The notes: generated from the sequence alone by a model not told the origin. 57,859 nucleotides of DNA, filler included, from Jimgerdemannia flammicorona (GCA_003990765.1; 3 parts of 3 records of this genome joined end to end with filler, not necessarily neighbours in it), one strand, 5' to 3'; positions 4,742 to 42,427 are shown, counted from the first letter of the whole stretch. A program made the numbers and translations.

Positions 4742-4769
4742 TGAAGGGTAGTCTGTCCCAGACTATTCT

Positions 4770-5282: not shown

Positions 5283-6370
5283 GGTGTGAGGGGAAGTATA
5301 TCTTGAGGTGATTGATGTGTACTGGTGTTCTTAGGGTTCGTCCATCCATGCTTCTTAAATAGATACTGGTTCCTCTGATGTTGTGTACAAGATAAGGTCC
5401 TTCCCATTTTGGTTCCAGTTTGGCGGCAAAGTTTGTCTCAATCATGCTTCTCCAGACTAGGACTTGATCTCCAATCTTGATCTCCTGATCCTTCTGTTTT
5501 TGGTTATAGTACTTCTTTTGTCTTTCCTGAGCTTTGATAATCTGTCTCTGGGCTTGGTTTCATAACTGTTCTGCCTTCTTGAGGAGGTCTCTGAGATTCT
5601 CATGGTCAGCAGTTCTGGTTTTCTTGGCAAACATCATTTCAAATGGCTTTTGTTTGGTGGATGTGGCAGGGGTATTCCGAATTTCCCATAGGATCTCAGA
5701 TAAGCAGAGGTCCCAATCAGTAGGGTTGACTTGGGCAAGTCCTTTCTTGATGGTCTGGTTCATTCTTTCTGTCATGCCATTGGTCTGGGGGTGGTATGAT
5801 GTAGTCCTTTTGAGGTGGATCTTATGAATTCGGGCATAACTTGTGATTATGCTGTTGATGAATTCTGTGCCTCAGTCAGAGATGAGTTCTTCTGGAGGTC
5901 CATATCTGAGTGTGAGTCTATGGAGGAGGCCTACAATAGTTAAGACATCTGCGATTTCCATTGGGAAAGCCTTGGGCCACTTGGTCAGATGTTCTACAAA
6001 TATAAGGATATATTTGTTTCTTCTTGGTGTAACTGGTAAGGGTCTGATTACATCTACTCCCCATCTTTGGAAGATGTGAGTGGGTGGGGGAATCAGTTAC
6101 AGAGGGGCTTGGTAGTTCTTCTTTCCTTGGTACTTCTGGCAGGTGTCACATTTCTGAATGATGTCCTGTACTTGAGCTCTGAGGTGGGGCCAATGTTGAT
6201 ATTGTTTTCGAATCTTGTCTTCTATGCATGTCTGTTCTTGGTGGGCTTTCACATATTCTTGTCAGATAAGATTTTCTTGTGCTTTGATGGTCTGAGGAGC
6301 TTCCTTTAGGGTGTGGTTCCTTGGGACACCCTTCCTCTAGTTCATTGGGAGTGGCAGGAAAGTACATCAA
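5266..6370 (-). pseudogene. Integrase of Gypsy family 1
   Basis: CDTCQ zinc finger; WGVDVI, ISD, TTSYHPQTNGMTERMNQTIK, GPY and VHINHLK motifs. Confidence 0.92.
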
Positions 6371-7745: not shown

Positions 7746-8161
7746 GGAAGGCTTCACTGTCTCCTGGGTCGCAGAGGGGCCTTTCCTTTCTTCTGGGACC
7801 TTTTGCCATTTCCTGATAGGTTTAGTTCATAAACTTCCCTATGAGTTTGGTTGAGAAAAGGCACCAGATGTCCTATGATGGTTCCTTTTGGCAAGATGAT
7901 GGTCTCCCAACTTTGGTTGGTTGCTTGGGAGTGTACTGGGTTCATCTTGTCAGGGAATGTGTGTCCCTCTATATCCAGGTGTGGGATATCTTCCTTGGGT
8001 TCAAAGAAAAGGTTCCTGGGGTCGGGTGGTGCAAATATTTCGAAGGTGGTTTGTTCTCCAGACTCCAGGATGAGATTTTTGTGTAGTCTGACTGGTTGCC
8101 AGTATACTTGCTGGGGAACATTCCTCTTGAGGTGGTTGACTTGAAGGAGATGTACCTCTTT

Positions 8162-8575
8162 CTTATCTGAACTTCCAAATCCCTTGGCTTGTCTTATTCC
8201 TTTAGTCAGTTCAGAGACTTCTTGTAACTGTGGGGCCTTGACCTTCATGAAGACTGCTTGGGCAATCTTCTGTCCTCTAATAATTCAGTGCCATTCTGCA
8301 CTGCTGTTGTGTAGGATGACCTTGATTTCGCCTATATATCCAGGGTTGATGGTTCCTCCTTCTATGGTTATCCCTTGTCTGGCAAGTCTGGACCTTGAGG
8401 TCAGTTGGATATAAGCTCCTTGAGGTGGCTGCATGGCTAATCCGGTTCTGACCATGAAGGTTTTTCCAGGCTTGATAGATTCATCCTCCAGGCTGTGAAG
8501 GTCATATCCTATATCCTCTGGGTGGGCTTTGGTCGGAGGTTTGGCCTTGGGGTGCAGCAGGGCATACTGGGCGAT
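8162..8575 (-). pseudogene. dUTPase domain within Gypsy pol (one in-frame TGA at 8285-8287)
   Basis: All five trimeric dUTPase motifs: IGYDL, TSRS, GGTINPGYIGEI, GQKIAQ, RQAKGFGSSD. Same frame as gag and PR. Confidence 0.92.
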
Positions 8576-9889
8576 GTCCTTGCTGAGTTTAGGCTTTTCT
8601 AAGGCTGAAGCTCCACTGGCGGAAAGCCTCTAAGCTCTAAGGTTGAGGTGTGGCCATCTGGCTCCAGTAGAGGGGTCTCAGAGGTAATTAATTCCCCTCC
8701 TTCCTGTAGGGTCAAGGGCTTCCATGAAGTTGGTGGCATCTTCTGCCCATCCTTGGCAGATTGCATGTCTGATGAGAGCTAGGATATCTTCTCCCAAATT
8801 GTAGATCTTGAGAATTCTTTTTCTGGGCTTCTTGGTCTGGCTTTTTCGAATCTGACTTTTTCGAATCTGGCTTCGGTTATCTCCTTTCTTCAAGGTGTGC
8901 ACTGCAACATCATGACTGAGGTAAATCTTCTGATGTCTGCAGTCTTGGCAATCAGAGTGTCTTCTATGGTTGCAATATTCCATTGCTCGGAAATGATGTT
9001 CCCAGCTATTTATTTCTTGTTGTCTGGGGAATCGGTACCCATCTTGGTCATAGATTGGGGGAAGAGTAGACAAGGGGTATATTTCTGTTTGGGTAAAGAA
9101 GCCTTGTCCCCTAAATCGACTTTGTAGCCTTGTGGTGACTTCTTGGAAGGTGGTAGACTGTACAAGAGTAGTTGGGGGTTCTGGTCTCTGGGGTCTCTGT
9201 CTTTCTTGTTGGTCCAACAGATGACACTGATAGCAGTAGTCTCAGGGAGAGTGGAAGACCATTTGATGTGGACATCTCCCTAACCGGAAAGCTTTCTCTT
9301 GGTGGGTTTCTTTCTTGGGAATAATGGTGATGGTACTGGGTCCTTCCTCTGTATTCCAGGGGTCATTGTCTTCAGGTGGTATCTAATGAGGGTCATCCCA
9401 GGGGATGAGTTTGGGGACTTCTTCTCCTTCAGGTACTTCTTGTTCAGGAACTTCTTGGTCAGAAGTTTCTTCTTCCTCAGATGATTCTTGACCCCAAATT
9501 GCTTGCACTTCTGCAGCTTCAGTTGCAGGTGTTTCTGGAACATGTCTGCATTTTTTCTTCTTTCTTTTGCATTCTGGGCAGGCTGTGCCAGGCGATTTCC
9601 TTGTTCCTATGATCTTGGAGGAGTGCTCGGGACATTTGTGTCTCTTGAGGCATGTAGAGCATCCTTTGGCTTCTCCTGCAATGGCTCCAATGGTGATGGG
9701 AATGGTGTTCTTGGCCCACACATTGTCTTCTGATCTGTCATCCACCAGGTTAATTCGAGGATTGAGTCTGGGATCATTTCCATCTTCAGATTCTTCTTCC
9801 TCCTCTGTAGTAGACTCCTCACTGCTGGCATATTCTTCTTAGATGGTGACCTTCTTCTTCTTCTTTGATTGCTCATAGCTGGTTACCTT

Positions 9890-10250
9890 AACTCTATACT
9901 TCTTGCCTCGATAGTCAAACTTGAGTACTTGTTGGCCAATATCAACAACTGCATTCATTTTCTTCATCCAGTTGGTGCCAAGAATTATGACATAGGTGAC
10001 AGCTTCGGTGACAACAGCTTTGGGGATGGAGAACTGAATGTGTCCAAGGGAGATGGTGATATTTCGTACTTCTCCAAGGGGTTGAGTTCAGGCTCCATCT
10101 GCTACTATGATGCTGAGGTTGGATGGTCCATCAATGGGCCATTGGAGGGTGTCTAAGAATCATTTGGCAATGATACAGACAGCTACTCCTATATCTATGA
10201 GGATTTTTGCTTTTTGTCCTCCAATGTCTCCATGTAAGTAGGTGCTGACA
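9890..10250 (-). pseudogene. Aspartic protease of Gypsy family 1
   Basis: KILIDIGVAVCII (mutated DTGA), in the gag frame. Confidence 0.8.
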
Positions 10251-10839
10251 TGTCTTTTAGCTGCTTGAACAGGGATGGAGGCTGGTTCTTGCTGGATTGG
10301 AACTCGGCCAGTGCTAGACCTTGTGGTTCTCAGCAATTTGTTTCGAACTCCAGCTGGTGTCAATTGCAAGAACTGCAGGAGAGGAACTTCCATCTTGGCT
10401 TCTTGAATCTTCTGCCAGGCTTCATTGTAAATGTCTCTAGGCATGGTCTTTGGAGTGTACTTCTTCTTGGACTTTGGAGCAGCAGGTTCCCATTCTTCTT
10501 GTTCCATTTTTTCATCTTCTGGTGGCAATTCATTCATCTCGGGCACAAAGGGTGAGGGGGTTCGGGGAGGTGTTTCAACTTGTTCCTCCTCATGTTCTTC
10601 ATCTTCTTCTTGAATGATTCTCCTGCTGATGTTCCTGGATGGTCTTCCCACAGGTCTCTTTCTTTTTTCTGCTGAGTAGACTGTCTTTCAGGTGGTAACC
10701 TTGGTAGGATACAAGTTTAGGTCACTGTAGTCTTCACTGTTGCTTGCTTCCTCGAAATCTTCAACAGGATGGGCCTCAGTCTTCTTGTACTGGGTGTCAT
10801 TCCTTTGGTTTGGTGGTTCTGAGTCCCTTCGGTCACTTC

Positions 10840-11752
10840 TTTTATTGTCACATTCAGTGGCATAGTGTCCGAATTGTCCATAGTGAAAGCATTGGACTTG
10901 GGCTCTGTCTCAGGCAGGGTACCTTCTTTCTTCTTGCTGGTAATTCCTGTTATCTCTTGGTGGATAACCTTGGCTCCTCTGTGGTGGGTATCCTCTGTTA
11001 TCTTGGTAGCTCCGATTTTCGCATATAGTGAGTTTTTCAATCTGACCAACCAATCGATCTAACTTAGAGCTGAGGTCTTGGATTTCACTTCTGTCCTTCT
11101 TTCCTTCCTTGGCTGGCCTTCTTTCTTCAGACCTTTCATGTCCTTGAAGGAGTCCTTGCAGGGCTTTGACCAGGATATCTTCTTTATCTTCCTTCTTGTC
11201 ATGGTCGCTCCAGGTAGTTTCTTGCCTAACATCGAAGAATTCTTGGGCTGTATCTACTTGCTCTTCAGACCTTCTGATGCCTAGGGTGCAGACATACTGG
11301 GCAATGTTTGGAGGAATTCCATTCATGAAGGTCATTGGACCTATGATATCTTGGTTAGTGGCATTGAACCTGGCAGAATGCATTCTCTTCTGGATTCTTG
11401 TGAAGAAGGCTCTGGGTAATTCTCCAAGATTCATCTTCATTCCCATGATAGATTCCTGAGCCTTGTGGCGGGTTTCATTTCCTGCATACTTTTTGATGAG
11501 CCAGTGGACTATGGCCTCATATTCTAGCTCATCAGAGAATACTGCTTGTATCTGTCTTGCCAGTTCCAAATCTGAGTTGTTTGCTGTTCGGTGGAAAATT
11601 CCTCTGGCTGGTTCTCTAAGCTGGGCTTTGTAGATGGCAATTTTTCTTTCATCTGAGTGGTTTCTCAAGGCTGCAATTCCTTCGATTCCATCAAGGAATT
11701 CTCTCGGGTCTTCCTCTGAGTATCCTGCAAAGGTTGGCAATGAGGTGGCCAT
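10840..11752 (-). pseudogene. Gag with CCHC zinc knuckle (family 1)
   Basis: LPTFAGYSEEDPREFL...LREPAR retrotransposon gag. After a TGA comes VQCFHYGQFGHYATEC, with the second Cys mutated to Tyr. Confidence 0.9.
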
Positions 11753-12290
11753 TTCGTCATCACTTTCTTCTGATTCTGATTCAGGTTTGGATTCTGATTC
11801 TGATTCGCTTTCTGAACTATCACTAGAGATGGGAGTGCTTGGGTATCTTGAAGATGGTGTTCTGGTCCTTGGGTGAGGTGGAATAGACCTAGGTATCCTT
11901 GTAGGAGCTACTTCTAGTTCTGCAAGAGGTTGTGATAGGGGTTCTATTGGTGAGATTGGTGGGACTGGTATGAGGTGTCTGGCTGTAAAATATTGGGTCT
12001 GGATAATAAGGTCTTCTAGTTCTTGTGCAAGTTCTCCAAAAACTCCAGCAGGACTGTCTGTATTATCTGGTTGATCTGGTTGGAGATTTCGGGCTGTACT
12101 GCCTCCTGCTTCTGATTGGGATCCTTCTGATGCTGGGTAGTTGGCAAGCCTTGAGGTGATTACTTCTCTTCCTGTCCAAATGCTGGTGATGACTGGTTCT
12201 CCTGTAGGGGCAGAGGTTGGTGTTGTATCAAATATATCCAGTTTGACTGTGGGTTCTTGTGAGCTGAAAAGTCACGTCGATTTTGAAATC

Positions 12291-12308
12291 TTCCCAGTTG
12301 AGCTCCCA
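12291..12308 (-). promoter_or_regulatory. Primer-binding site, possibly tRNA-Pro type
   Basis: TGGGAGCTCAACTGGGAA starts 2 nt after the 5' LTR and resembles TGGGGGCTCGTCCGGGAT. The tRNA identity is inference. Confidence 0.6.
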
Positions 12309-12310
12309 AA

Positions 12311-13791
12311 TGTAACATGCTGGCTCAATGGAGGCAAATTACAAGGTTGGGGGTTGATGGAGTTTGGCTTGAGCCCCCAGTTACTTTGTCAAAAGCAACA
12401 AAATGTTCTTGGTATTTAGTGGTATAATAGTCAAAGCAGGATATCTACGAGTAATTTCCTTATTCAGACTGTTCTCTAGGTGCAGCGGCAATTTGTGTGT
12501 GAATGGACTTCCTTCTTGGGTCAACTGGGAATGCCACAATAATTTGTATAGCGCGACGATCTCCAAAAGTATGCAATTTCTGGGTGTGATGGTCTGGCAA
12601 TTTAGCAGTTCTCCTTCTTGGGTGATGGTCTCTGATTTCTGCATGATGATCTCTTATGCAGCACAGTGGGTTCCTTATGCAGGGCATTCTGATAATTTGG
12701 CGGATAACTCGATTTGGCTCACTGGGAATTGTACAGCACAGATTCTTCCTAAAATGGCAGAGTTCTTAGGGAATGTGGATAACTCGGTGGCTTTAACTGG
12801 GAATTATCTCAGGTGGCAGATAACTTGATAACTCGGGCTCACTGGGAATGATGAATAACTTGGATGTCACAGATTCTTCTAAATCAGCAGCTTCAACTGG
12901 GAATATGGCAGATAGCTTAGAAATAGTGGGTGATGTGGATTCTTCCTGAATTGGTGGGCTCTTAACTGGGAAATGGGATGGTGCAGATTTTTCCTGAATT
13001 GGTGGGCTTCTACTGGGAATATGAACAACTGGCAACATTCTTTGGGAAAGGGTCTCTTGGCAAAGTTACATCAAAGACTGGCTTCATTTGTGCAACAAAT
13101 CACTGTGAAGTTGCATCAGAAACTGGCTTGAGCAAGGCGGCTTTCTTGGGAAGGTGGAGGATAGGGTTCTTCAGGCTTATCTGGCAAGCATACCAATAGC
13201 GTGGCTTATTCCTTTAAGCAGTGGGTTCTTCAAGAGGTGGCGAAGTTCTCCTTGAACTTAGGCAGCAAATCTTCAGGCTTATCTGGCAAGTGAACCAATA
13301 GTTTCAAAGGTAGCAAAGTTCTTCCTTGAACTTAGGTGGCAAAATCAGCTTTGTATTGGAAAGTGGACCAGAGTGGGAATAAGGGGACCAATTGCTCAAT
13401 CTTTAGAGGCTTCTTTGGTTTGCACTTCAATTTGGACTGAGGTTTTATTCACTCTCGCCTCTGGGGTAATTTATACAAGTTGGTTGCTATCTGGTTGCTA
13501 TGTGGCTAACTATAGACTTGCTATCTTCGGTAATGTTTGGGTGTGTCCTCTGGGTACAGGTGTGTCCACAGGACATGTGTGTGTCCGCCGGACATGAGTG
13601 TGTCCACAGGACATGAGTGTGTCCGCAGGACACAGGTAAACAATCCTGATCTGGTGTCTTGGCTAATTATAAGTGTGGCGGGCATAAGTAACTATGATAT
13701 ACTGGAAGTCACATCATGTTGAGTAAATATGCTAATTGTTCATATCATCTGGCTAAGTTATAATTCAGGTGCTACGTTTTGGTCCATCACA
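12311..13791 (-). repeat. 5' LTR of Gypsy family 1 (1481 bp)
   Basis: Direct repeat of 3231-4730. Confidence 0.97.
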
Positions 13792-13795
13792 CTAC

Positions 13796-14889
13796 TTATA
13801 CTTTCCTCAACTCCTCTAATACCTCTTTAAGGACTACTATGCCCAATACTATCCCACCCATCTCAGATAGTACTTCTACCTGCCAATTGTTCATTAAATT
13901 GTCATTATCCTCCTGCAATATCTCACTCTCCACAGGCCCCCCTTCATCCTGCCAGAGAGCCTGCTATTGTCCTGAAATCTCACCCAGTATTTCCACAATC
14001 TCAGTGATCTTAGTACCATCCTCTTGCATCACTAAGGCCCAGCTATGTTGTACTCTTCTGGTCTTCATAATACCTGACAAATATTTTGTAGATTGCTCTC
14101 TTTCTTCCAACTGCCTAGCCTATAGCCTTGCCAGCAGGCCATCTATCACTCTATCCTCAGCTATCTTTAAATCTAGCTACAACTTGGCCACCTCTGCTAC
14201 CAATTGGGAGTATATCTCTCCTGACAAGTTTCACCCTTCCATCAATCTCAATCACTATTGCAGTCCTTATTTAACTCTCCTCTTCTTATCCTTCTGCTTC
14301 TTTCCTGCTACCTCTCTCACATCATACTAATAGATATCTGCTAAGTATTTAAATTTACCCCACTACTGCTTGATTGGCTATTCTTCATTCTTCCACTATA
14401 TCACCTCCTATCTTGCAATTGTAACAAATTGTTTCTGCTCTGCCTGCCTTCTGAGAAGAGCTATATTGAGCTACCAGTATCTCCTATCTCCACTGATAGC
14501 CTGAAATCTACCACACACCTCTACTTCTTAGTGATCTGACCAAGGATACCACTACACCTCAGTAATGTTCAGTATATTACTCCAGTATTCTGCCACCAGA
14601 ACCCAGTCAATTCTTGTTCTCACCAGACCCTCATCAACCAGATGCCACTAAGTAAAGGGCTCTGGCATTCCTCCCTAATACTGCTGGATACTATCAACTA
14701 ATCCTATATATCTCTCAATCTAAAGCTATTGTGAAAGCTCAGCAGAGACTACTATACCAATCCCCCAATCAGACTTGTCCAATGTCCTATCTCATATCAT
14801 ATTAAAGTCTCTCTCTAGAATATTCAGCCCAACCTTCTTCCAGTTCTCCCAAGCCAGCCAGCTCTCCACCCATTGCTTTCACTCTCTAC
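13796..14889 (-). mobile_element. LINE copy C, endonuclease/linker portion (continues 2489-3230)
   Basis: Decayed ORF2 similar to 26440-27540 (e.g. PFT*WHLVDEGLVRTRIDWVL and SDH motifs). Confidence 0.8.
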
Positions 14890-15092
14890 TAGTACTCCGA
14901 ACGAATGGAGTTGATCTGGATGAGATTCGATTCAGATTCGTCATGTAATGGATTTGAATCAACTCAGATTGGTCTCATGATCTAATCCAGATTGATCTGG
15001 ATTGATCCAGATTGATCCAGATTGATCCATCCAGATGATCCATCCAGATGATCCATCCGGATTGACCCATCTGGATTGATCCATTCAGATTG
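14890..15092. repeat. Putative hAT terminus (TAGTACTCCGAACG) followed by short subterminal GATCCA/CCAGAT repeats
   Basis: Abrupt junction with LINE C. A 13/14 match (TAGTGCTCCGAACG) occurs at 35925-35938. Tandem 10-14 bp repeats span 14980-15092. Confidence 0.5.
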
Positions 15093-15944
15093 AAATCTTT
15101 GGTGATGTCACCCTTTCTTTTGTTCATTTCGCTCTTGTTTTTTTTTTTCTGCCACACTTTGGTGACATCACCCTTTCCTTTGTTCTCTTTCTTTTCTTTG
15201 TTCTTTTTCTTTGTTCTTTCCTGCCGCATCATGAGCAAACAAAACAACAGCCCTTAATTCGTACGTTGGTCCAGTCTACTCATTTTTCACCCTGCAATGA
15301 TTGTCAAAAGAGGGAGTATTCAAGGTGGAAATACACTCTCTGCTGACAATGTTGGATTCATTCTCATATAGACAGCACACAAGCTGCTCATCGAGAGCCA
15401 AAGGGGTGATGGTGGTAGCAGTGGTGATGGCGATGGCAGGGATGAGAGAGAATTCCGGCAACAACTCATGGTGGCCCTTTGGACCTCAGAATTCACAGAC
15501 CTCACAGCTATGTATACGGCAGCCTTTTTGGAGCAGCCGATAGTAGATGTAGGTTGCTCACTCAGCCGCCACTTGTTTACTTGTATTTATTTAAACTTCC
15601 CCAGCATGACCCAATTTACCTCATGCTTTTCTTAGGGTCCACAGCTCTATGGCGAGATCTGCCAACTTTATTTGCAACATCTGGTCAAGATGAAGAAAGG
15701 CTGGCAGACATTGCGGGGCATGCCTTTGGTGACTGAGCTGTTGAGTCAATACATCGTGTGGCAGAGGTCTCAAAAGGAACAGAAGTAAGCCTTCATGAGT
15801 AATTCTTGTGCAACTCATGCAACTTATCGGCGTGCAACTCATCAGCATGCAGCTCACTCACTCACTCACGCTCTTTTTCTGAAATACCCATCTCTGTGTT
15901 TTATTTAATTTCATTTTTATGTGGTCTCCCCCTAAAAAACACCC

Positions 15945-16110
15945 ACACCTGCATGCAACTCGCATGCAACCTGTCTGCATGCAACCCGCTTGCCCGCACA
16001 CAACCCGCCCACACGCAACCTGCCCGCAACCCGCCTGCATGCAACCCGCCCACACGCAACCCACCTGCAATCCGCTTACATGCAACCTGCCCATATACAA
16101 CCTGTCCGCA
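15945..16110. repeat. Minisatellite of ~15-bp GCAACCCGCC(CACAC/TGCAT) units
   Basis: About ten visible degenerate tandem units. Confidence 0.85.
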
Positions 16111-16223
16111 TACTTATCTTGGTCCCTCAGATCAGGGCTCAGTTCCATTGGAAAGGAGAGTTCAAAGTTACCTGAGTTCAACCACGTCTGGTATCTGATC
16201 AAATAGAGAAATTCGAGGGCAAG

Positions 16224-17353
16224 ATGTTCAGCATGAGCAGTACCAGCATCATCATCAAGGCTTGGGGGTCTACATTCAAATCAGAGCCAATCATACTCGA
16301 CCAAGGGGTCCATTGGCCAGCAGGAGTAACCAACGACGAAGAGAACCATATCTTTATTAATGAATGTAGAGAGGTGGTTGTGATGGTGGTAAGGAATCTC
16401 TACGGTGACGAGCTTCGCCACCACATCAATGAGATTTGCGAGGATTGCGTCAAATATCAGGTGGCAGAGAAGAGGGGGCGAAAAAAGCAAGGAGGGGGGG
16501 TTTGGATAGGAATTGGGTATACTGCAACACTGGCAAAGGGTGGGTTCCGAAATCCCCTACACTCATCTCCCTTTTTTTTTTAACCCCTCCATAGATAAAT
16601 CACACTCTTCGCCAACATACTCTTTTTGATACAATTCCAGGGATGCACAAGATTCTGTACCCCTACTAGAACTTTAGAAGTGCTGTCAAAGAGCAAACTG
16701 CATGCGAGCATGACATGACCTGTGCGGCAATGGTGGCTATGATCTGGGGTTCTTTGAGCAGATTGGTAGAGTGTATGGCAGGCCAGCTTGGTGGTGATCT
16801 CGGCACAGCTGTACGTATATTCTTGGTGCAATTTAGTATGCCATATGAGATGAGGAGCTCCGCTTTTTTGGGGTGCTGCAGCCCGGGGGGTTTCTGCGGC
16901 CCGGGGGGTTTCTGTCCCCCAAACGCAAAAAGGACTGACTGGTTGCCATCCATTTTGGCAGGTTTCCAAGCCGGGGCTCCCAGAGCTGAACCAAGAGCAG
17001 GCATCCACTAGCACAGCCTGGCAGTATGAGGTCCTGAGCCAAGGGTTCACCCAACTATATGCTCACGTCACATCAGGATATATCAGGCACAACTTTCTCT
17101 GCTCACACACACAGACAACAACATCACCCCGGTAATGTTTTACATCCTGGGAAAGAAGGGCCCAACCTGGGAGGATAGTGGCAGAGTCTGGTATGACCTC
17201 ACCTATGGTTTCAGGGTCCTGTTTGCAGCCAACACAGCCATCCTATTCCAACCACACGACCACCACAGCACTATCACCTTCGAGGAGAGCTCAGACACAA
17301 CAGTCGTCACACTCATAATAGATGACAGGCTCATCAAGGCCTGGGACCAGTAG
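16224..17353 (+). pseudogene. Putative Tet/JBP-like 2OG-Fe(II) dioxygenase, intron-containing and frameshifted
   Basis: Ordered motifs REVVVMVVRNLY, IGIGYTA, AAMVAMIW, NYMLTSHQD (HxD at 17071-17079) and YGFRVLFAANTAILFQPHDHHST (distal His). GT-AG intron candidates at ~16540-16594 and 16811-16961. Confidence 0.55.
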
Positions 17354-17654
17354 GTGGAGCAGTTTTTATGAGAGTTAGGCAATCTTTCATGAGAGTTAGG
17401 CAGCCATTTTGTGCGGGTTGGGCAGTCTTATATGAGGGGGTTGGGCCGGGCACCTCTTATGAAGCACTAGCTTAGCCGTTATGCAGGGCCCTACCGGCCC
17501 CTTGGCCCTGCTCTGTAGTGCCGCCGGTGTGGCACTGCGGCGCAGGGCCAGGGTGCCCGTGGGACTCGAACCGGTGACTTCGACCACCGGAAACACCCTC
17601 CGACCACCAGAAGCACCCTCTGACTGCCAGAAGCACCCTCCGCCCTGAACTCCT

Positions 17655-18020
17655 TAGCAGCTTGGGGCTGCCCCTATGCTGCTGGCAAAGGGCCACAAAT
17701 TTTGCATGCTCCCTCTGCCTGCCCTGCCTGCCAACCGACCCCGCCCACTGACCTGGGTACTGACAGCTTGGGGCTGCCCCTCGCTGCTGGCAGAGGGCCA
17801 TAAATTTTGCATGCTCCCTCTGCCTCCCCCCCTGACCTGGACACTTGCGGCTTGGGACTGCCCCTTGCTGCTGGTGGAGGACTGCAAATTTTGCATGCTC
17901 CCTCTGCCAACCTGCCCACTGACCCACCCACCAACCCAGACACTGGCAGCTTGGGGCTGCCCCTTGCTGCTGGCTGAGGGCCACAAATATTATGTGCTCC
18001 CTCCACCACCACCACTGCCA
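17655..18020. repeat. Tandem ~85-110 bp GC-rich repeats (4 units)
   Basis: Repeated GCTTGGGGCTGCCCCT..GCTGCTGG..GGGCCACAAATTTTGCATGCTCCCTCTGCC. Confidence 0.85.
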
Positions 18021-18141
18021 ACCCTGCCCCACTTTGGCCGCAAACTCTGGACTGAGTCCTCAGGTTTTTTTTCCTTTTTATTAATTTGAAAGGTATTAAA
18101 TATTCCACAAGGCCAACCAACTTATCCATGGACCCGCTGAA

Positions 18142-19222
18142 TTAGCAGTCCGAGCCCCACCAAGACTTCAGACACATATATGCCCGGATTGTCTCAGCAT
18201 TCAGCACACACCTCTTTGGGGCAATGAGGTCTACCCCACCTGAGAACACCTGCTCAATGGGAGCACTGGAGGCAGGAATCGCCAGGTAGTCCTGAGCCAT
18301 ACCACACAGGCTGGGGAAGTCCATTTGATGCAGCTGCATGTCCCAGTGGGTAGAGCGGTGGTTAGATTGGTGGGTTAAATTGGCCCAATGCCCACCTGAC
18401 AACCCACCTTCCACCAGTTGAGCACCTCTGTGCCCTCCAGCAGGACCACGTAGTCACTGGCAAGGTAAATGGTAAGTTTGTCTATTGACAGCAGCTCTTT
18501 CACTGATGGCTCCCTCTTCCTCTTTCTACCAAAGTAAATGCGGGACAGGAGGGATCTCTTGGCATATTCATCCGAACTTTGGCCAGAACCTTGCAGCGGT
18601 GCATAGTTTTTCCAGTACACTTCAATTATGGCCTGCTTGGTTCTCTCAATGAAGTGATGCTCCCAGCCCTGATCTTTATGGTATTGTAGCTTTAAGCATG
18701 GGTCCAGCACTGTTTGAAGAAAAGGAGAGTGAGTTTTTGTGGGGTTTCCTCTTGTTTTGGAACAGGCAACAGCCACATACCAACATTGACATACCTGTAC
18801 TGATTGAGTATATGGCAGTATCTGTTTGGGAGTAGTATTTTCTAAGCTTGCTTAGAGCAACCTCCATGGTATCTCTCTGATCTGGGCTTAACCATAAATC
18901 ACTGCAACCCTCCAGCCTATCCTCAAGCTTGTCCTCTAGCCAGTCAATCAGAAAGTTGTATACTGGTATCGCAGAGCTTATTGTTGGGGTCGTTTGTTTG
19001 ACTATATCCTTCATACAATCATCGAAACACTGGCAGTTATATGTGGTGAGGTATTGCACTGTGTGGAGGCAGACAAAATGAGTGTGGAGCCAGGGCAACC
19101 ACCACTTACTTCCAAACCTCTGACAACATTCCTAAGTACATCCCACTTACTTTCACCTAGAGCCTCGGCCCATATTTCCTTGTCGGCAGCCATCGTTGAA
19201 TCTATTGGCTTTTTTTTTTTTT
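18142..19222 (-). mobile_element. 3' part of an intron-containing hAT transposase gene, running off the contig
   Basis: PTISSAIPVY, KLRKYY, VLDPCLK, VLNWWK and the hAT dimerisation motif FPSLCGMAQDYLAIPASSAPIEQVFSGG...LNAETI..MCLKSW. Three GT-AG introns join the frames. Confidence 0.93.
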
Positions 19223-19322
19223 NNNNNNNNNNNNNNNNNNNNNNNNNNNNNNNNNNNNNNNNNNNNTTAATTAATTAANNNNNNNNNNNNNNNNNNNNNN
19301 NNNNNNNNNNNNNNNNNNNNNN
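19223..19322. other. Artificial contig spacer
   Basis: N44 + TTAATTAATTAA (stops in six frames) + N44. Confidence 0.99.
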
Positions 19323-20466
19323 TTTTTTTAATGGACTCATGTCCCATAGATTTTTATTGGAAGGGAACCTAGACTATATAGGCCAAAACCCTCCCCCACC
19401 ACCCACCAAGCACTGCCCCCCCATTAACCTAGGCTAGCTATTGTTCAGCAGCTTGACCATACCAGACACAGCAGGGCCTATGTTGGCCCACACCTCATTC
19501 TGTGTACCATGCTCTCCCTACTATCAGGGGAAACCCAACCATATACCAACGACCAAAAGCACATGCCTGAGAACCTAATATATGTATAAGGCCATGCCCT
19601 AGCCGAATAGAATAGCCCCTACCACTCCAAAGAGAATGACAGGCAAAGAAAAACCCTCATCAAAGCACAACATGGTGGGTAGGGCCTGGTTCTCCCAGTC
19701 AAGGTAAGTAAAGAACTTACACATGAGGTGGGAGGAGACCCCCAATACTCCACTACTCAAGCCTGTGGGCCTTGATCACATTGCTATGTCAGCTCCAAGT
19801 TCCAGTTGAGTGTAGTCAAGATGCCTGAAATAGGTAGTCTTGGGTCCCCTGACCCCCCCTGATGACTGGGGCCTAACCCACCAACCCACCAAAAGAAGCT
19901 GAGAGTGATATCTACCACCTAACCATGCCACACCAATCAAAAGGCTCCACCAAAGCAGCACCTGCCCCAGCCCCAACAACTGCCCCCAGCCTGGCACCCT
20001 ATTGGTTCACTGTTATCACCCTTCCTCCTATCTGTGATAGCCATCTCTCCTCCCATCCCGACAACACCTGAAAAGCAGTCACTTATGCCAGAACCACACT
20101 CGCCAGAAAGCTCACCAAAGCCAGAGGGCCCCACTACAGGTACTGAGGACCTACAGGTAGCCTACACTGAGCACTTGACACCCAAGGTTAGCCGACTCTC
20201 TATATAGCCTGAGACACACCAAGACACTACCTCATTGGGATAGCAAAAGGAAGAAGGCACTACACCAAAACAGATGCACTCCAGATGCAGCTGAAGGCAC
20301 CAGAAACTGCAAAAAAGTGGAGAAGACACTGATCTGACACCAATAAAGGGACAACTCATCACCATTGCCCTCCTCCCACCATACCCATGCAGGCACAGCA
20401 AACCAACCTGAGGTAGAGGGGGTAATAATAGGGAAAAGGGGACTTGGAAGATTACCTACCAAACCT
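19323..20466 (-). mobile_element. Probable decayed 3' end of a LINE
   Basis: The minus strand ends with a G-rich tract, AATAAA and an A-tail at the contig edge, like 29740-29861. CpG-poor; no clear protein motif. Confidence 0.4.
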
Positions 20467-20500
20467 TGTGACCAGTAAGATAGTGGAGAAAGGGGTCAAT

Positions 20501-21421
20501 GAGATGAGGTCCATGAATGTTTCATCCATTTTATGTACTTCATCATATGTTTTGCATATGTTATGTGGGATGATGTCATTGCTAATGATGTTATTACATT
20601 TAGCAGTAGAGAGAGCAAGGAGATCAGGGGCTCTCCAGTCTATGAGGTTCTCTTCTACAAAATAAGAGACAAATGTGGAGTCTTGGAGAGGTCTAACCTA
20701 GATACTTGGGCCTTGAAATACTGAGATCAATCCTTATAGAAATTGATCTGGGTTGTTCTGGAGGATGGAATACCAGAACTCTTCTACCTCATCACTATTG
20801 AGAGTGATAGTGAACTGGACTTCTGTAGCCACCATGGCTTCTAGTATATTGATATGGCAGACTGACAGATCTCTGAAGTCTGAGACTCTGGTATACTCTA
20901 AGTTGGAGATCAACCATGGTGTATGCCTGAAGATCTGATGAATCTTCTTAGCTGTCCTTATTTTACATATATCCATAGGAGTGGTATCTTGTAGCTCTTG
21001 AGAGCTGGCTTGAGAGAATTCCTGGTATAGGAGGTTTCCTATTTCATATTCTTACTTTATCTGGAGGCATTCAGTAGCAATAGTGATTCTTGTTTCCATC
21101 TTACAGTAGTAGAGAATATAATGATAAGAGTTACTAGTACCCAGGTTGACATTAGAAGTCCTTGTGGTTTGGGTCTTTATGGCACTTCAGATATCTTAGA
21201 ACATCCTTTTCTGGACTGAGGGGCCTTGGTAGTCTCTTGACCTTGAGGTTTGGCAAGCAGCAGACATTTTGTTTGTAATAAGTCTTTGAGAATTAGTCAT
21301 CATGGCTCATCTTGTAGCCTGGGTGAGTCATGCTATATGATCTTCTTATACTTCAATCTGGTGGCTTGTAAGAAAAGACTATCTCCTGTACTGATGTCAT
21401 TATTCTGAGATCACTATTATA
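20501..21421 (-). repeat. 3' LTR of family 2, truncated
   Basis: Matches only 33361-34281 of the 5' LTR; the terminal TG is mutated to TA. Confidence 0.85.
20734..21303 (-). pseudogene. LTR-encoded accessory ORF (3' LTR copy)
   Basis: 190-codon single frame ...YEIGNLL...RTAKKIHQIFRHTPWLISNL..., with stops consistent with C>T. Confidence 0.55.
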
Positions 21422-21759
21422 TCTTCCTCCTAAATAAGGATCTTGTTGAATGTCCTTATTCATTAGTCTAGTCTTGAAAATTTTGCTGATCCCATAACCT
21501 CTGGCAGAAGGTTGAAAAGTGGTGTTTATGGGCTGGTATCTTCTCTATATATTTTGGCATAATGGTGAAGGATTGCTCTCTTCATATAAAGTAAGGTCCT
21601 GATTCTGATCTTAATCAATCAGTTGATGGTTCAAACTCCTCTAGCTTCAAAAGTCTCATAGATGAGTAGTTGCTAGTATTATATCCCTTAGAGAATGGTC
21701 CAGACAGATTGTCTGCTGGTCATGGAATATGCTGTTATGATTCATAGACTAGAACCTCA

Positions 21760-23968
21760 TGGGTGGTCATTATGTTTTGCTTCTCTTATATAGATTTATA
21801 GTCTATTTCTATGTACTATGGTGGGCAGTATAGTCTCTGAGAGTTTTCTAAGCCAGAAGATAGTTTTCTTGATATCTTGCATATAGAAGGGTCTTTTCTA
21901 TTTATACTTCAGTTTTCATAACTATGAGACTTCTATTTTATTTCAATACAGTAGGATCTTTTCTCTGATTTGGATGGGTTCTAGGGTTTTGTAATTCTTC
22001 TCTATATTCTTCCTTGTCAGTACTTGTAACTTGATGATATAATCTTTAGCCTTCTTTCTGATTTGGTATAGTCTCTGGATTTCTGAGTCAATCTGTCTCT
22101 ATATTAGGTCTAGATTTGTAGCTGAGGTTCTATTGGAATCTTCTTCTCTAAAGAGCAGTTCTTTTGGGGTAAAATATATACTCTGTGATCATATGTCTCA
22201 TAAGATAGAGAGGGCAGTTGAGAGATAGTTATCCCAATTGTCATATGTATCTGAGATCTTCACCAGGATGTTCTTGAGGGTCTTATTGATTCTCTCTGTC
22301 TGTCCATTCTCTTAAGAGTGATATACAGTGGTCTTAATATGCTGAATCTTATATTTCTGATATACATATATATTAACTCATGGAATTTATTAACAAATTC
22401 AGTACCATGGTCTGTGGTGATTTGCTTTGGTATCTTGTAGTGACAGATGATTTCTTGGTACAGAAAGTCAGCTATAGAGAGAGCATTGGCTTCTTATAAT
22501 GCTCCTGCTTCTACCCATTTGGTAAAGAGGTCTACAATAACTATAATGTAGTAGTTTCCTGATAGTGTTACTGGTAGCAGCCCAATGATATTCATTATAA
22601 TGTGTAAAAGAGGATAGGCTCAATTCTTGATGATCTGGGTATCTGATATTACTGATTTTATTTCTGTTTTTGATACTTGTCATACTCTTTGACAAATTGG
22701 TATAGGTCTTCTTCCATCTTAGGCCATCATATAGTTCTTCTTTCCTTGTCATATATATTAATTCCACTTAGGTGTCCTTGTTTATGTACTTCCTTCATTA
22801 CTTGATACTTCTTGTGTTCAGATATTATGAGCTTTTCTCCTTTTCTGAGTATAGTATTGTCTAGTTTAAATTATTTCTAAGTCTGATTGATAATAGTGAT
22901 AGTCCAGGGTTTGAGATGGTTGGGCATCTTCTACTGCCCAAGATAGCTAATTAATCTATAGTATAGCTCCTTATTCATGTTGAATAGTCTTGATAGGAGT
23001 GTTTTGGAGTATCCTTGAGAGTATATCAGCATTGGCATTAGTTCTTCCTGAGCAATATTTGACAGTACAGTCATACTCTTGCAGTCTGTAAATCCATCTG
23101 GCATATATTCCTTTAGAGTTCAGAGTATAGAATAGTTAGGCAAGAGTGGAATGATCTGTTTAAATAGTGAAGTATTTCCTGGCTAGATAGTAGTAGAACT
23201 TGTCTACTGCCCAAACTACTGCTAAGTATTCGAGCTTGCATGACTTATAGTTCTGTTCTACTCTGTAGATACCTTGGCTTGCATAAGAGATGACATATTT
23301 ATATCTATCTTTCTTCTGAGCTAGGACTGCTCCAAGTCCTATAGCACTTGTGTCTGTTTGCAGGATGAACTCTAGGTTCCAAATTGGTCTTCTGAGGATG
23401 AGTGCTTAGATCAACCTGGTCTTGAGTTCATTGAAGGTTTCTTGTCATTCCTTAGTCTATTCAAATTTGGTCTCCTTCTTCAGTAGCTTGTAGATGGGTG
23501 CTACAATATTAGAGTATTCTTTGATGAATCTTCTATAGTAAGAGGCCAGTCCAAGAAAGGCATGGACTTCTGTAGTTATCCTGGATCTTGAGTAGGCTGC
23601 AACAGCCTCAATCTTCATAGAATCTATATGAATGTCAGTCTGATTGATGATGTGTCCTAGGTAGGTGATTTCTCAGGCTACAAACTTACACTTTTTGGAC
23701 TTGATATAGAGGCTATATTCCTTGAGCTTCTTGAGAGCTAGCAGTATGTAGTTGATATATTCCTATGTAGTATTGCTGAAGATGATCACATCATCAATAT
23801 AGACAAAGAGCCATTTTCCAATCTCATTGCTGAAGACTCTATTCATCATTTGCTGAAAACTTGCTAGAGTATTACATATTCCAAATAGTATTTGCAGATA
23901 GACATAGGTGGCATCAGGTGTGATGAAGGCTGATTTCTCACTGGTATCTTGAGTGAGACCAATCTGAT
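21760..23968 (-). pseudogene. RT (3' half), RNase H and integrase of family 2
   Basis: YIDDVII, FLGLASYYRRFI, QTDTSAIGLGAVL, VDLFTKWVEA, ITTDHGTEF and ERINKTLK motifs. Confidence 0.92.
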
Positions 23969-24059
23969 TATTAATAACACCTTTCTCAGTTATCACTCAC
24001 GTTACACACACTTTTACAACATACTTTTGAAGCATTTATTGAAGAAAGGTACTAAAGTC

Positions 24060-26088
24060 ATGGCAATCAACAAGCAAGCTGATATGTATACTAGGTCAGG
24101 TGGACCTGGAGCCTTCAACTAGCAACATGTTAGATGAGGGTATGGTTTAGGAATGGGGTCTTTCAGTGGTCTGAGTGGGTAGGACAGTTCAGGCAGTAGT
24201 AGTGACACTGGGGGAGGAGCAGAAGGACAGAAGAGAAGGAGCTTTACAGATATACTAAAGGCTAGTGGATGGCCTGTTGGATCTCATGGTAGGCAGATAG
24301 AGAGGAAGGAGAAGCAGAGAGAAAAGAAAGTAGGAGATATAGCTCAGCAGTCAGTGGGTGGAAGGGCTGGTGGAGTAGCTGCTGGGAGTAGGGGGGAAAC
24401 TGCTGATAGTGGCATGACTGGGAATCTGGAAAAAAATTCAGATATGACTGTTGATAGTGAAACTGGTCAGATGAGACAAAAGAGGAAAGAGGATCTGGCT
24501 GATAGTGTGATGGGGCTAGCAGTGGTACTGTTACTCAAGAAGTCAATCTTGGAGTTTGCAGTAACCTTGTGCTTCCAGGACTTGGCAGTGACAGCAAGGA
24601 TGGTTCTGGAAATTATCTTGAAGCAAGTAGCTGGAGCTGCCTTGATGAAGTTTCTGAAGAGATTGGAGGGGGTGGAGGTGGGTTTTGAGGAGGCAGGTCC
24701 ACTGGAGGAAGCTTTGAAGACTGAAGTGATGGTAGGAGAGGTAGTGGTTCCTATGGTACAGTGTTTGAGGTGGGACCCCAGAGTGGTTCAGTTACTAGTA
24801 AAGAGAGTGCCTATGGTGACAAAGGTTGTGACTAGGAGCAGGGTGGAGGAAGTGATAGCAGAGTATGGTGATATGGTCAATATTGGATTTCAGATGTAGG
24901 AGGAGACTGCTTTCAGGATTGATGATATTGACATTAGGATTAGACTGGTAGAGAGAGAGGCCACAGGGAAGATGAGTGACTGGCCTTCAGTTATATTGTG
25001 GGGGGCCTTTATCTGTAAGGTGTCAAGGGTGAAAGAGAGTGAGGAGGAGGAGAAGAATCTGTTGGAGACTCTAGAGGAGATGAGTGGGGCAGTAGAGCAG
25101 AGGACAAAGGTCTGGAAGATGTATAAAGAGTCTATGCATTTGGAAATTGTGGATGGGAAATATATTTGTACTGACAAGAGGCAGTGGGAGAGGGCTCAAG
25201 GGTGTATGAGACAGAGAGAGTTGTTGGCAAGCATAAAAGGAGGGACAAAGAAGAGTGCTGGTAGAGCTAAGGAGTCTAGAGATGCCAAAGTGAGTGTCTG
25301 GACTAGTAAGAGAGGGAAGAATGGAGAGGAGGGCCTAGATGGAGTCAGGAAGACACTGCACAATGACCCTTATACTGATGGTACATTTGAAGTCTGGGAA
25401 GAGGAATTAGATGACACTCTCTCTCTTATCAAGAGGAGTCCTGCTGAGAGGAGCAAAGCAGTAGAGGATGTGCTGATGCATGGTACCCAGTAAGTACACT
25501 TTGGAGTTCCTGATATAGTCAAAGGGAGACAGGTAGTGGCAGTTAGTGAGGATGAGCTGATAGATGTTCCAAAGAAGGAGTGGGATGAGACTACAAGTAT
25601 GGAGGCTGATATTACAATGTTGGATACCAGGAGGCCAGCAATACTAGAAGGGAAGGAGATGAGAAACCTATTGTAGATATACAGGATGATGAACAATCTT
25701 GTAGCTGAAGAGTTGAGAGAAGTGGACCTAAGAGTGATGAGCAAAGAGCATTGGGTACAGATCCTGCATGGTGATAGAGTAGTGGAGCCACTGAAGGTGG
25801 AGGTGCTTGCAATTCTTCTGGAGGAGGAGGGGTATGAGGTTGATAAGGGGAGAGAGACTGAGCTGGCAGTTGTTGCTAGTGAGTGGTCCACTACTGTGGG
25901 CAGAGTGTCATGATCTGAAGCTTTGGCAAGAGGTCTGCCTGGAGTATTATAAGGACTTTGAAGAAAAGGAGAATAGGGAGATGGCTAAACTTCTGGTTGA
26001 ATTGGAGGCAAAGGAAACTGAAGAGAAGAGATTGACTGCTGAATACAACTTAGATATAGTGCAAGAGGGAAGGGATGTGGATTTGTAG
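24060..26088 (+). pseudogene. LINE D ORF1 (decayed)
   Basis: Chain of ORF fragments homologous to LINE B ORF1. Confidence 0.75.
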
Positions 26089-26125
26089 AGGATATATGGG
26101 ATCTTACTTCTAAACATTATTCCCA

Positions 26126-29100
26126 ATGAACAGTACAACTAACATTTTTCTCTTAATGTGAATGGATTATAGGGATCTGAGTAGCAGAAGAACATTTTTA
26201 CTTGACTTAAGAGATTGGAGGCTGATCTCTTTCTGCTGCAGGATATATGTTGTGAGGATGATGTGGACCAAGTAGAGTAGACTAGAGAATGAGAAGGAGC
26301 TACAGCTTGAATTGACAAAGTGACAATTTTGGTATAGAGGAGTAAAGGAGAATTAGGTGGAATTAGAAGCTAGAGAGACCATTTGGTATAGGGGGAATGG
26401 TATTGACCTGGGTGAGAGCCAGTAAGAGTTGGCTCTTGCTACTGCCCAGTAGCTAGGAGTGAGAAGATTGTATAGATTAAGGGTCTTCTGGATGAGGGCA
26501 CATTCTTGGAGAATAGGGTGAATATTTTGGGAGGTGACTTCAATATGGTGTGAAATCTTCAGTTAGATAGAACTGATGGAGAGAGGAGTGCTGGCAGAAA
26601 GAGTGACAGCCTGGATGCATGGGAGGAGGTAGAGAACCTTAGCTCCTTAAGAGATATAGGCAGAATACAGTGGGGAGAAAAGAGAATTTACATGCATTGG
26701 GTGAATGATCTTGGTACAAGGATTGACTAGATACTGATGGCTGAATGCTGGGGCCTGGATGTTTGGAGGACTCTGGAGGTAGAGTAGTGTCTATAGTCAG
26801 ACTACTGGGGACTATTAGGATAGAGGCAGTTTGGGGGAAGTGGAGATGGACCCAGACATTGGTACCTTAACTCCTTTTTGCTAGCTGAGAAGATATTGTG
26901 GGACCTTTGGGCAGAGGATATTTAGGTAAAGATCATAAGCTGAGTACATGAGAGCTTGCAAGTAGATGTTTATTGGATGAAGTTAAAAGAGGCTGTGAGA
27001 GTCTACTGGAGAGAAGTTGGTAGGAATGCTAAGAGGTGAAGAAGGAAAAGAGTATGGTGTGCTTCCAATAGATTAGTTAGATTATATATAGAATGGGCTG
27101 ATTTGATAAACTCTGGTGAGGTGGATGATTGGAGATTAGTGTGAGCTAGATTAGAAGTAATGGAGTTACAACAGGTGTTGAGAGAGGAAGAGGAGATGCA
27201 TGTGAAAGTAATGGCAGCTAGGTTGAGGTAGTAGGGGCTGGAGGAGAGGGAGAGACCAACTAGGTACTTGTCAAGGCTCCTCTAGATGAGAAGGGTATGA
27301 CATTGGTGAGATGGAGTCCTTGATGCTGAGAGAGAAATGATACATAGTATGCAATAGATCTTAGAGTTGCTAAAGGAGTAGTGGAGGGGTCTGTGGAGTG
27401 AGAAGAAAGGGGGTACTGATGTAGAGGCAATTGGAGACACTCTAGCAAACTGGAAGCTACTGTAAGTGGAGGGCCTGGGGGATTTGATTCTTCTGATCCA
27501 AGTAGAGGAGATCTAGGGAGTTCTTGTAGCAACTAAGCTTGGTATAGTACTAGGAGAGGATGGGCTATCTTGGGACTTTTGAAAGAAGATGGTGGGGGTC
27601 CCTGGAGTATTAGGTGAGATGGCAGCCCTCTGTGATTTTGTTCTCCTGAGAGGTCATGAGTGGAAGGGCATAACCTAGGGCTGGTGGCTCTATTGTACAA
27701 GGATAAGGGAAGGAGGGAGAATTGGAAGAACTGGAGGCTGATCATGCTGCTGGATATGGACAGGAAGATAGTTACTAAGGTGATTATGGTAAGATTACAG
27801 AGAGTTGCCCAACAGATATTGGGAGAGAAGCAGCAGGGCTTTGTTGGAGGCAGACTTATTAGAGATGAGATGACCTGGGTCCATGGTATCATTGAAGGGG
27901 TAAGGGCTAGTAGATTGGATGGGAGACTGGTCTTTCTGAATCAGGAGAAGGTCTATGCCCATATTTGGCAAGTGTGGCTGGGCAAGGTACTGGACAGAAT
28001 AGGAGTTCCCCTACTATTTCAAGCTTCTATGTTGAATTTGTTAGAGAGTAGTAGGGTGGTGCTGATGTATAATGGTCACCAGGGTATGGTGTTTCCTTTG
28101 GAGAGAGGAGTTCCTCAGGGGGATCCACTGTTTCCTATTCTATATGCTCTTTCTTTAGAAACTTTGATAGATAGGATTTGGCAAAAGGTGGCCGAGCTTA
28201 TTATTTATGGTATAGTGTGGAAGATGGGGGCCTTTGCAGATGACATGGTGGTTAGACTTGGATTAGTGGCAGATGTTGAGGCTCTTAAGGAGACAGTAGA
28301 ATGGTATGTGGTATACTCTGGTACAAAACTCAACTAGTATAAGTATGAGACAATAGTGCTGGGAAATGAGTTAGTGAGAGGGGACATCATTGGAATAATT
28401 GTCTCAGCAGAAGAGACAGTGAGATATCTGGGCATCTTCTTTTCAGTGTATGGATTAGTCTTGCTACAGATGTGGTGAAAGAAGAGGGTGACCATCTGGG
28501 GGGAGGCACTTTGAGGCTGGGGAGGTTGCCACATCTCCCTGACAGGCCAAGTAATAATTCTGAATATCTACTGGTTTTCTAAGCTGTGGTATATTGCCTA
28601 TCATTTGGACTTTCCAGCTTAGGTAGTAAAGAGACTGATGAAGCTGGCTAGAGACTGAATTTGGGCTGGGAGGTGGTTCCAGATTAGTTGGAAAACCCCT
28701 TCAATACCAGTAGTTTGAGAGGAGCTAGGACTGGTGGACTTTCCTAAGAGGCTGTACTGCCTGAGAGCTTGGTGGTTGAAGTGGGCTGTGGAACTAAGGG
28801 GAGAAGGATGAGTGCCATTGATGCAGAAGGTGTGGGAGATGAGATTCTCCCCAAGGGGGTCCTCAGGGAATTTGCTTTCTCTGATGGACCTGGGTGGAAG
28901 TCATTGGCTACAGTATAAAGGCTTCTGGTGAGGAGTAGCAGATGGAGCACACTGTATTAGCTTGCACTGGTATAGCAATGAAGGAGAGATGCTGTGGGGA
29001 CCAGCTATATGGAGATGGGACAGATTGCTTCTGGAGGGCACTCCTTTTATTGAATTTGATATTAGTGATGGAGTGGAGTATCAGAGGAGACTTGGTCAGA

Positions 29101-42360: not shown

Positions 42361-42427
42361 ATAAATCATAGGATTTCTCTTAAGGCTAATGCAATACCTA
42401 TATCGATAGTTACCACGCTTCATAAAT

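Follow-up and report, generated by a model that had tools for sequence, protein, structure and literature searches.

A decayed, putatively Tet-like gene convergent with a hAT transposase in Jimgerdemannia flammicorona, possibly the passenger of a high-copy transposon

It has been reported that TET genes occur in eleven lineages of DNA transposons, including, in rust fungi, hAT (Kojima 2025, PMC12730594). Among them are 20 TET-bearing hAT7 families in six Puccinia species, which are flanked by target-site duplications (TSDs) of 7 bp and encode proteins of the PU-type (PMC12730594, section 3.1.2). For proteins of the PE-type, the HHpred e-value against CMD1 is only 1.4, and it is their AlphaFold DB models that match CMD1, NgTET and CcTET at e < 1e-5 (section 3.2.3); the stated hallmark of the PE-type is HxE (section 3.4). 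It has also been proposed that TET enzymes counter methylation-based silencing, which is stated there to be without experimental validation (PMC12730594). The locus compared with these systems here lies in a stretch of DNA from Jimgerdemannia flammicorona (GCA_003990765.1), which is 57,859 nt long, consists of three joined segments and is called the window. The region under study, 14890-19222, contains a decayed, putatively Tet-like gene on the + strand and, converging with it, a gene for a hAT-superfamily transposase on the - strand.

On balance, and with about even confidence, 14888-19222 is taken to be the left part of a decayed copy of a high-copy hAT transposon that carries a Tet-like passenger gene. 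Read inward, such an element would consist of the left terminus, subterminal short repeats, the passenger gene on the + strand, a tandem-repeat spacer and, converging with the passenger on the - strand, the 3′ half of the transposase gene. The passenger would encode a putative Fe(II)/2-oxoglutarate dioxygenase, whose nearest described relatives appear to be TET/JBP-like proteins of the PE-type, encoded by DNA transposons of fungi. In intact copies it might act on the DNA of the element itself, by oxidising 5-methylcytosine or by a related base modification, and this would blunt both methylation-based silencing and CpG decay. A transposon that carries a DNA-demethylating enzyme would hold a direct counter to methylation-based genome defence, and each independent capture of such an enzyme supports the case for a recurrent strategy. 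An earlier note, made from the sequence alone, had called a hAT-borne enzyme of this sort an unusual pairing, a view that is outdated since TET-bearing hAT7 families are already published; the carriers it had named, Kyakuja-Dileera-Zisupton and Plavaka transposons, now belong to a longer list of eleven lineages (PMC12730594). The pairing is no longer surprising in kind, and what remains of interest is a Tet-like clade that a second hAT lineage may have captured on its own.

The decayed gene and its family

The intron-containing decayed gene with HxD...H motifs, which the earlier note had noticed, could be reconstructed (Table 1): it comprises four exons and carries, besides two in-frame stops and the loss of 1 nt, a stop codon shortly before its expected end. 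Its H, D and H are found without exception in the family described below, and the motif goes beyond chance. The distal His is located 52 residues from the H-x-D motif; in NgTET1 the corresponding spacing is ~50 residues. Two of the lesions could be followed in other copies of the gene, by means of contigs from three soil-metagenome runs (X1, X2 and X3) that were aligned to the region at a likeness of at least 80%. Position 16173 is C in other copies, giving CGA instead of the stop, with 13.4 of a depth of 13.4 in X2 and 24.2 of 118.5 in X1; the extra C after 17092, whose loss causes the frameshift, is present in other copies with 34.7 of 45.8 in X1 and 4.62 of 4.62 in X3. Because other copies are without these two lesions, the ancestral gene was open at both sites. 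The copy in the window itself is dead and truncated, and its value is that of a pointer to a family, not that of a working element.

The read-through translation of 16628-17350, with stops written as X, was used as a phmmer query against 1.84 billion representative proteins at E <= 1e-3. Six proteins were listed, of which four are genuine relatives: P0002 (136 aa, 74% identity, E 1.9e-35), P0003 (E 1.3e-17), P0004 (E 9.3e-7) and P0005 (374 aa, apparently full length, E 1.2e-5), and tblastn maps all four onto 16293-17437. The other two, P0001 (1868 aa, 29 stretches) and P0006, are tandem-repeat proteins whose matches fall on translated intron or on low-complexity sequence in the query, and they were dropped as noise. 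The 29 stretches of P0001 fall on the translated region of intron 3 (16811-16961; E 1.1e-47), and this protein probably represents the translation of a satellite to which the 18-nt repeat at 16876-16914 is related. When P0005 was taken as the query, the sole protein it yielded was P0007 (E 8.8e-59), and a homologous-protein search with the 107-aa exon gave no match. Each of the five relatives from the database is an unnamed singleton, and their contigs, of 823-1702 nt, provide no genomic context.

In addition, a scan of metagenomes gave two loci, L001 and L002, which share 99.0% identity across 2717 nt and are thus counted as one; the same query gave 0 loci in prokaryote genomes and 0 in viral contigs. 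At 471-1956, L001 holds an intact four-exon homologue in DNA that is AT-rich (GC 0.34) and not depleted in CpG (observed-to-expected ratio, o/e, 1.21), and L002 has an in-frame stop within its last exon and a broken second exon. The first intron and the intron that follows A(K/S)G|MH are at positions common to L001 and the gene in the window. The H, D and H (H48, D50 and H100 in the numbering of P0002) are invariant in all five aligned members, and also in L001 and L002. Judged by these alignments, the gene belongs to a small unannotated protein family with a conserved, putatively iron-binding 2-His-1-carboxylate motif, a family with few members in databases, yet with abundant decayed copies in one soil study.

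The 2-His-1-carboxylate triad (HxD/E...H) by which Tet/JBP proteins are recognised is therefore present in the family, and further leads were given by a language-model Atlas, which describes its own neighbours as leads rather than tests. For P0005, the top match is a cluster from Basidiomycota (0.96, 209/256 shared features) in which 15% of the members bear PF20515, and at rank 11 stands a cluster with Tet_JBP in 16% of its members. For exon 4 of L001, rank 4 is a cluster named 'Tet-like 2OG-Fe(II) oxygenase superfamily' (2OG, 2-oxoglutarate; 0.91, 178 shared features, PF20515 in 72%), and rank 7 scores 0.89, with Tet_JBP in 31%. By language-model features, PF20515 (2OG-FeII_Oxy_6) and PF12851 (Tet_JBP) are the nearest named clusters for two members of the family. 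A literature search for PF20515 by that identifier found no paper.

The published PE-type proteins that were compared with the family (among them EnSpm-22_AB, Plavaka-11_AB and Helitron2-1_LB in Table S1 of PMC12730594) have an order of motifs in common with it, as judged by eye and with no alignment statistic: a '..VV(I/V)RN' N-terminal strand, '..SAG..', 'R(M/L)DG', the metal-binding His motif and then a distal block, '(D)xGG.F(Y/F)...YG(I/F)RV..AANT.I...P.D.H(G/S)T'. In the comparison of the window with the PE-type, the N-terminal motif is seen in the variants 'VVIRN' and 'VVMVVRN', and around the distal His the window and EnSpm-22_AB agree at 17 of 36 ungapped positions, by a hand count that carries no statistic. 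Both the PE-type genes and the family of the window gene are carried in multi-copy DNA repeats of fungi whose transposons are CpG-depleted or methylated. None of the family motifs THTD, THVD, AGYT and GYTV occurs in Table S1 of that paper, and the family is therefore not among the proteins listed in it. The Tet-like reading has two sources, the language-model neighbours and the inspection against published PE-type sequences; from these, a Tet-like fold and enzymatic activity are predicted for the family, and the whole suggests a Tet-like clade that has been sampled poorly, escapes Pfam and has an altered site for the co-substrate.

Repeat boundary, copy number and the hAT transposase

On its left, the region begins at a real repeat boundary. 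In X1, from which 1608 contigs of 80-100% likeness were aligned, the summed contig depth is 1.2-8.8 in the six bins of 13800-14885 and then 147 in bin 14886-15066. Flank-type contigs stop at 14887 (three in X1, one in X2 and two in X3) and continue into shared foreign sequence, and one element-type contig begins at 14891, preceded by 255 foreign letters; the empty-site continuation of the flank contigs was not found in the window. Of the end that the earlier note had placed at 14890 and likened to a terminal inverted repeat (TIR), the boundary thus stands, at 14888-14891 by depth and contig ends, and it is a putative TIR, the window containing only the left terminus. At <=3 mismatches, the 21-mer at 14888-14908 occurs just once in the window, with no inverted copy, and neither strand of the window contains the hAT7-type terminus CARCRRTGGG (0 matches). 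Inside the boundary follow subterminal short repeats, whose unit has 6 matches, all in 14985-15082, versus 0.66 expected by chance.

From 14886 to 19222 the depth in X1 is 74-343 in 23 of 24 bins; the exception is bin 15972-16152, over a microsatellite, with 17. The ranking of the runs, X1 > X2 > X3, is identical for the gene and the transposase, and nearly all differences between copies are transitions. The gene and the transposase share one multi-copy block inside the repeat boundary; the gene is part of a high-copy repeat and not a host gene. The sequencing runs that match the stretch are soil-metagenome runs only, with no RNA run among them.

The transposase and its convergence with the gene, both noted earlier, were borne out on the - strand. 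Among 11 translations of open reading frames (ORFs) from 15372-21051, the ORF at 18142-18453 is the only one above a curated cut-off, matching Dimer_Tnp_hAT with E 7.3e-13 and 48.6 bits versus a cut-off of 21.4. Upstream pieces at 18375-18851 and 18676-19131 lie in other frames, a pattern which we take to be usual among hAT transposases of fungi. If three GT..AG introns of 62-85 nt are assumed, in a permissive model that picks them for the longest frame, 283 codons can be read without a stop between 19222 and the terminal stop at 18142. The N-terminal half, where the RNase-H-like DDE catalytic core and the BED finger of a hAT transposase would be expected, is cut off by the segment edge at 19222, and a homologous-protein search with a hAT piece gave no match. 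Decay seems uneven over the region, the gene of ~370 codons having four lesions versus ~283 codons of the hAT half that can be read open, although the hAT intron model favours openness. From the transposase stop at 18142 to the terminus, the left arm measures 3.25 kb, a length that in our judgement is great for a hAT that carries no cargo. In the spacer between the genes, the repeats that had been noted at 17655-18020 proved to be four copies of ~95 nt, and the number of repeat units varies among other copies, with joints at 17594-18015.

Table 1. Features of the region under study, artificial spacers of the window and summed contig depths (positions counted from the first letter of the window)
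Feature	Position	Strand	Basis or remark
Left terminus of multi-copy repeat unit	14888-14910	+	boundary placed to 14888-14891; depth jump and loose contig ends
Subterminal short-repeat array, 10/14-nt units ATCCAGATTG(ATCC)	14985-15093	+	periods 10 and 14, 4.5 and 5.8 copies
T-rich direct repeat, 60 nt, 1.9 copies, upstream of gene	15097-15210	+	
Pseudogene of four exons, Tet/JBP-like (PE-like) putative Fe(II) dioxygenase family	15720-17371	+	phmmer, tblastn, frames, splice sites
Start ATG	15720	+	
Exons	15720-15784, 16136-16539, 16641-16810, 16962-17371	+	frames and splice sites
GT..AG introns	15785-16135, 16540-16640, 16811-16961	+	
In-frame TGA stop, exon 2	16173-16175	+	
In-frame TAG stop, exon 3	16667-16669	+	Arg or Ser there in relatives
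1-nt deletion (frameshift) just upstream of HxD	after 17092 (17092-17093)	+	homology switches frame (tblastn)
H-T-D, putative iron-binding His and Asp	17108-17116	+	invariant in family alignments
Distal His of putative facial triad	17264-17266	+	invariant in family alignments
Premature TAG	17351-17353	+	Trp in P0002, which extends ~6 codons beyond
Repeat-rich spacer between both genes	17364-18017	.	
18-nt unit x3	17364-17424	.	within intergenic spacer
Imperfect 33-nt palindrome	17490-17563	.	within intergenic spacer
20-nt unit x3	17581-17642	.	within intergenic spacer
~95-nt unit x4	17635-18017	.	within intergenic spacer; TRF periods 84 and 183
hAT-superfamily transposase, C-terminal half (~283 codons)	18142-19222	-	Pfam Dimer_Tnp_hAT; cut at segment boundary
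Last hAT intron	18334-18407 (18334-18395 in frame-maximising model)	-	
Artificial spacer	19223-19322	.	44 N + TTAATTAATTAA + 44 N; contiguous sequence stops before spacer
Second artificial spacer, identical	38544-38643	.	44 N + TTAATTAATTAA + 44 N
Gene depth			X1 ~120-280, X2 4-17, X3 0-4
Transposase depth			X1 ~180-270, X2 4-15, X3 0-5

One element or two, and the nature of the passenger

The two genes would, on the shared block and its boundary, have moved as one element, and a number of observations weigh against this reading, some of them touching its unity and others the Tet-like nature of the passenger. As to unity, it is possible, though unlikely, that two unrelated repeats stand side by side, with a gene unit from 14888 to ~17450 that derives from another transposon and a left hAT end somewhere within 17450-18140, a possibility that the earlier note had also raised. 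In X1 the depth falls by half to 74 in bin 17420-17600, versus 141 before and 154 after it, and the transposase bins are ~1.5x deeper than the gene; among the 24 contig pieces listed, none bridges 17350-17490. The tandem repeats at 17635-18017 look like the subterminal repeats of a hAT, and the region as a whole is a transposon pile-up, with a long terminal repeat (LTR) element ending at 13791. Furthermore, a hAT element is bounded by matching TIRs and a target duplication of 8 bp (or 5-7 bp), whereas the window contains only one terminus, which does not match the start YARNG with which hAT termini begin; all three runs are from one study, and the relative L001 comes without a hAT on its contig. 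Against two repeats, the depth between the genes is never down at the level of the flank, the ranking of the runs is the same for both parts, and record 14 of X2 (18015-18603) joins the tandem repeat and the transposase end. Among 18 of 190 loose contig ends, none lies in 17350-18014 and one at 18015 is a 20-letter repeat-unit variant, which is a weak point since the true terminus itself has only 1-3 loose-end contigs per run. It is very improbable that a single-copy host gene decayed in place and adjoins an unrelated hAT insertion: the introns of the relatives are conserved, and L001, whose gene lies in DNA of undepleted CpG, has no hAT within its 3.7-kb contig and no transposase domain in the 5 other ORFs scanned, but the depth of the window gene is 15-200x that of the left flank, and the differences between copies are of the kind found in diverged repeat copies. 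A single element is moderately favoured over two juxtaposed repeats.

As to the passenger, it is rather improbable, but has to be weighed, that the family is not a Tet/JBP nucleic-acid oxygenase at all but another double-stranded beta-helix protein or a non-enzymatic accessory protein of transposons, whose H-x-D...H would then be a superficial likeness. A profile hit to 2OG-Fe(II) families, the absence of which the earlier note had named as refuting its proposal, was found neither in the window pieces nor in the six relatives scanned: hmmscan against Pfam-A gave no match to Tet_JBP, PF20515 or any other 2OG-Fe(II) profile, at E <= 1 for the 11 ORFs of the window and at E <= 10 for the 241-aa read-through, P0002-P0005, P0007 and the exons of L001. 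Sequence and profile searches of the PDB returned chance antibody matches only, and PHROGs chance matches only (E 0.035-0.46). Such a failure of sequence profiles is expected for the PE-type group, since its proteins also evade HHpred (PMC12730594). AlphaFold2 gave no confident fold for P0005: the mean predicted local distance difference test score (pLDDT) was 38.1 when the alignment had 9 rows and 37.2 when it had 16, and structural matches to models of that quality would be meaningless. The Atlas recognition value of P0005, 2142, is under the level of 2300 that is reached by 91 of 100 proteins of known families. In TET2 and in PU and PE sequences, an Arg of the R-x-S type after the distal His binds 2-oxoglutarate. 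In the PE- and PU-type proteins this Arg, which in the PE-type is part of the 'QRGLA' motif, stands ~15 residues after the distal His, and in the family of the window gene it is not conserved: the position aligned by eye with the 'QRG' of the PE-type, in a register that may be wrong, is H in P0005, N in P0007 and L001, T/V in P0002 and the window and G in P0003, and an Arg occurs 3-7 residues beyond it in five of six sequences, L001 being without. The carboxylate also differs, the hallmark of the PE-type being HxE and the family having HxD in 7/7 sequences. What speaks for Tet/JBP is that PF20515 and Tet_JBP clusters are among the nearest named neighbours of two members independently, that H, D and H are kept throughout the family and that an ordered likeness in several motifs links it to PE-type proteins, which themselves match the structures of CMD1, NgTET and CcTET (PMC12730594).

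Setting of the region and comparison with known systems

The three segments of the window measure 19222, 19221 and 19216 bases (~19.2 kb each), and the window is non-contiguous across its spacers, which the earlier note did not mention. The region under study is the right end of segment 1, and because of the spacer at 19223-19322 the sequence to the right of 19222 is unusable as a continuation of the gene and hAT region. Segments 1 and 2 are largely transposon debris and strongly CpG-depleted, with a CpG o/e of 0.12-0.38 across 1-20000 and 0.00-0.04 across 20001-34000; the first of these ranges agrees with the earlier description of the repeats as eroded at methylatable cytosines. By self-comparison, there is no second copy of the gene or of the hAT within the window. 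Rfam and tRNA scans of 13500-19222 gave no matches, and a tRNA-like T-arm at ~17540-17570 (-) was discarded since these scans did not match it.

To the left of the region, with its end ~1.1 kb from the hAT-type terminus, lies an LTR retrotransposon on the - strand (4420-13791), whose two LTRs (4420-4730 and 13500-13791) share 91% identity along 311 nt, and which bears RVT_1 (6801-7355) and a dUTPase-like piece (7754-8284). The GC skew of the window is strongly strand-asymmetric, being -0.41 to -0.53 over 1-3000 and +0.36 to +0.51 over 24001-30000, and the CpG o/e in the skewed blocks is 0.15-0.16 over 1-4000 and 0.00-0.01 over 24001-30000; the block at 24-30 kb contains an RVT_1 ORF of the non-LTR type. 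Since symmetric CpG deamination should yield no skew, a strand-biased C-to-T process acting on retroelement copies may underlie it. The third segment (38644-57859) is mitochondrial in appearance, with a CpG o/e of 0.67-0.96, and its ORFs, all on the - strand, include the C-terminal end of COX3 fused in frame to a GIY-YIG/NUMOD1 ORF (47938-48657), a second GIY-YIG ORF (44358-44960) and a LAGLIDADG_2 ORF (45946-46500).

One of the described systems to which the region comes closest is the TET-bearing hAT7 of Puccinia, in which a hAT transposase and a TET-like gene are found in one DNA transposon, as would be the case here, among repeats decayed from C to T. In several respects the two are different. 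The termini of hAT7 begin with CAACGGTGGG, CAGCGATGGG or CAACAGTGGG (Table S1 of PMC12730594), whereas the terminus in the window reads differently, and the 10-mers of the latter are absent from the 5′ termini given in the supplement (the first 400 characters of the consensus cells). The protein of hAT7 is of the PU-type ('GG.MW.IGWRK ... PH.D ... H.T'), which is not the type of the window. In three named hAT7 families, the TET gene is upstream of the transposase and in the same orientation, whereas the genes in the window converge. With regard to protein profiles, PF20515 and PF12851 gave no match by hidden Markov model at E <= 10 for any member of the family, in contrast to their place among its language-model neighbours. 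Besides Kojima 2025, the papers listed by literature searches include none whose title or abstract deals with a hAT that carries a TET gene.

In summary, the region probably represents a known kind of system in a dead copy, whose type of dioxygenase and whose hAT terminus are not listed by Kojima 2025. If the reading of a single element is true, the published list would gain a hAT lineage and a dioxygenase clade missed by Pfam. A further-reaching proposal, which is at present doubtful rather than probable, is that the family would be a fourth, undescribed clade of transposon-borne Tet-like oxygenases, which is PE-like, has HxD and is without the usual Arg for 2-oxoglutarate, and which would have been acquired convergently by a hAT lineage unrelated to hAT7, with hundreds of copies in a soil fungus of extreme CpG decay. 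Because this Arg is absent, the chemistry of the co-substrate is a candidate for being unusual in the family, and such a clade may use a different co-substrate, as CMD1 does.

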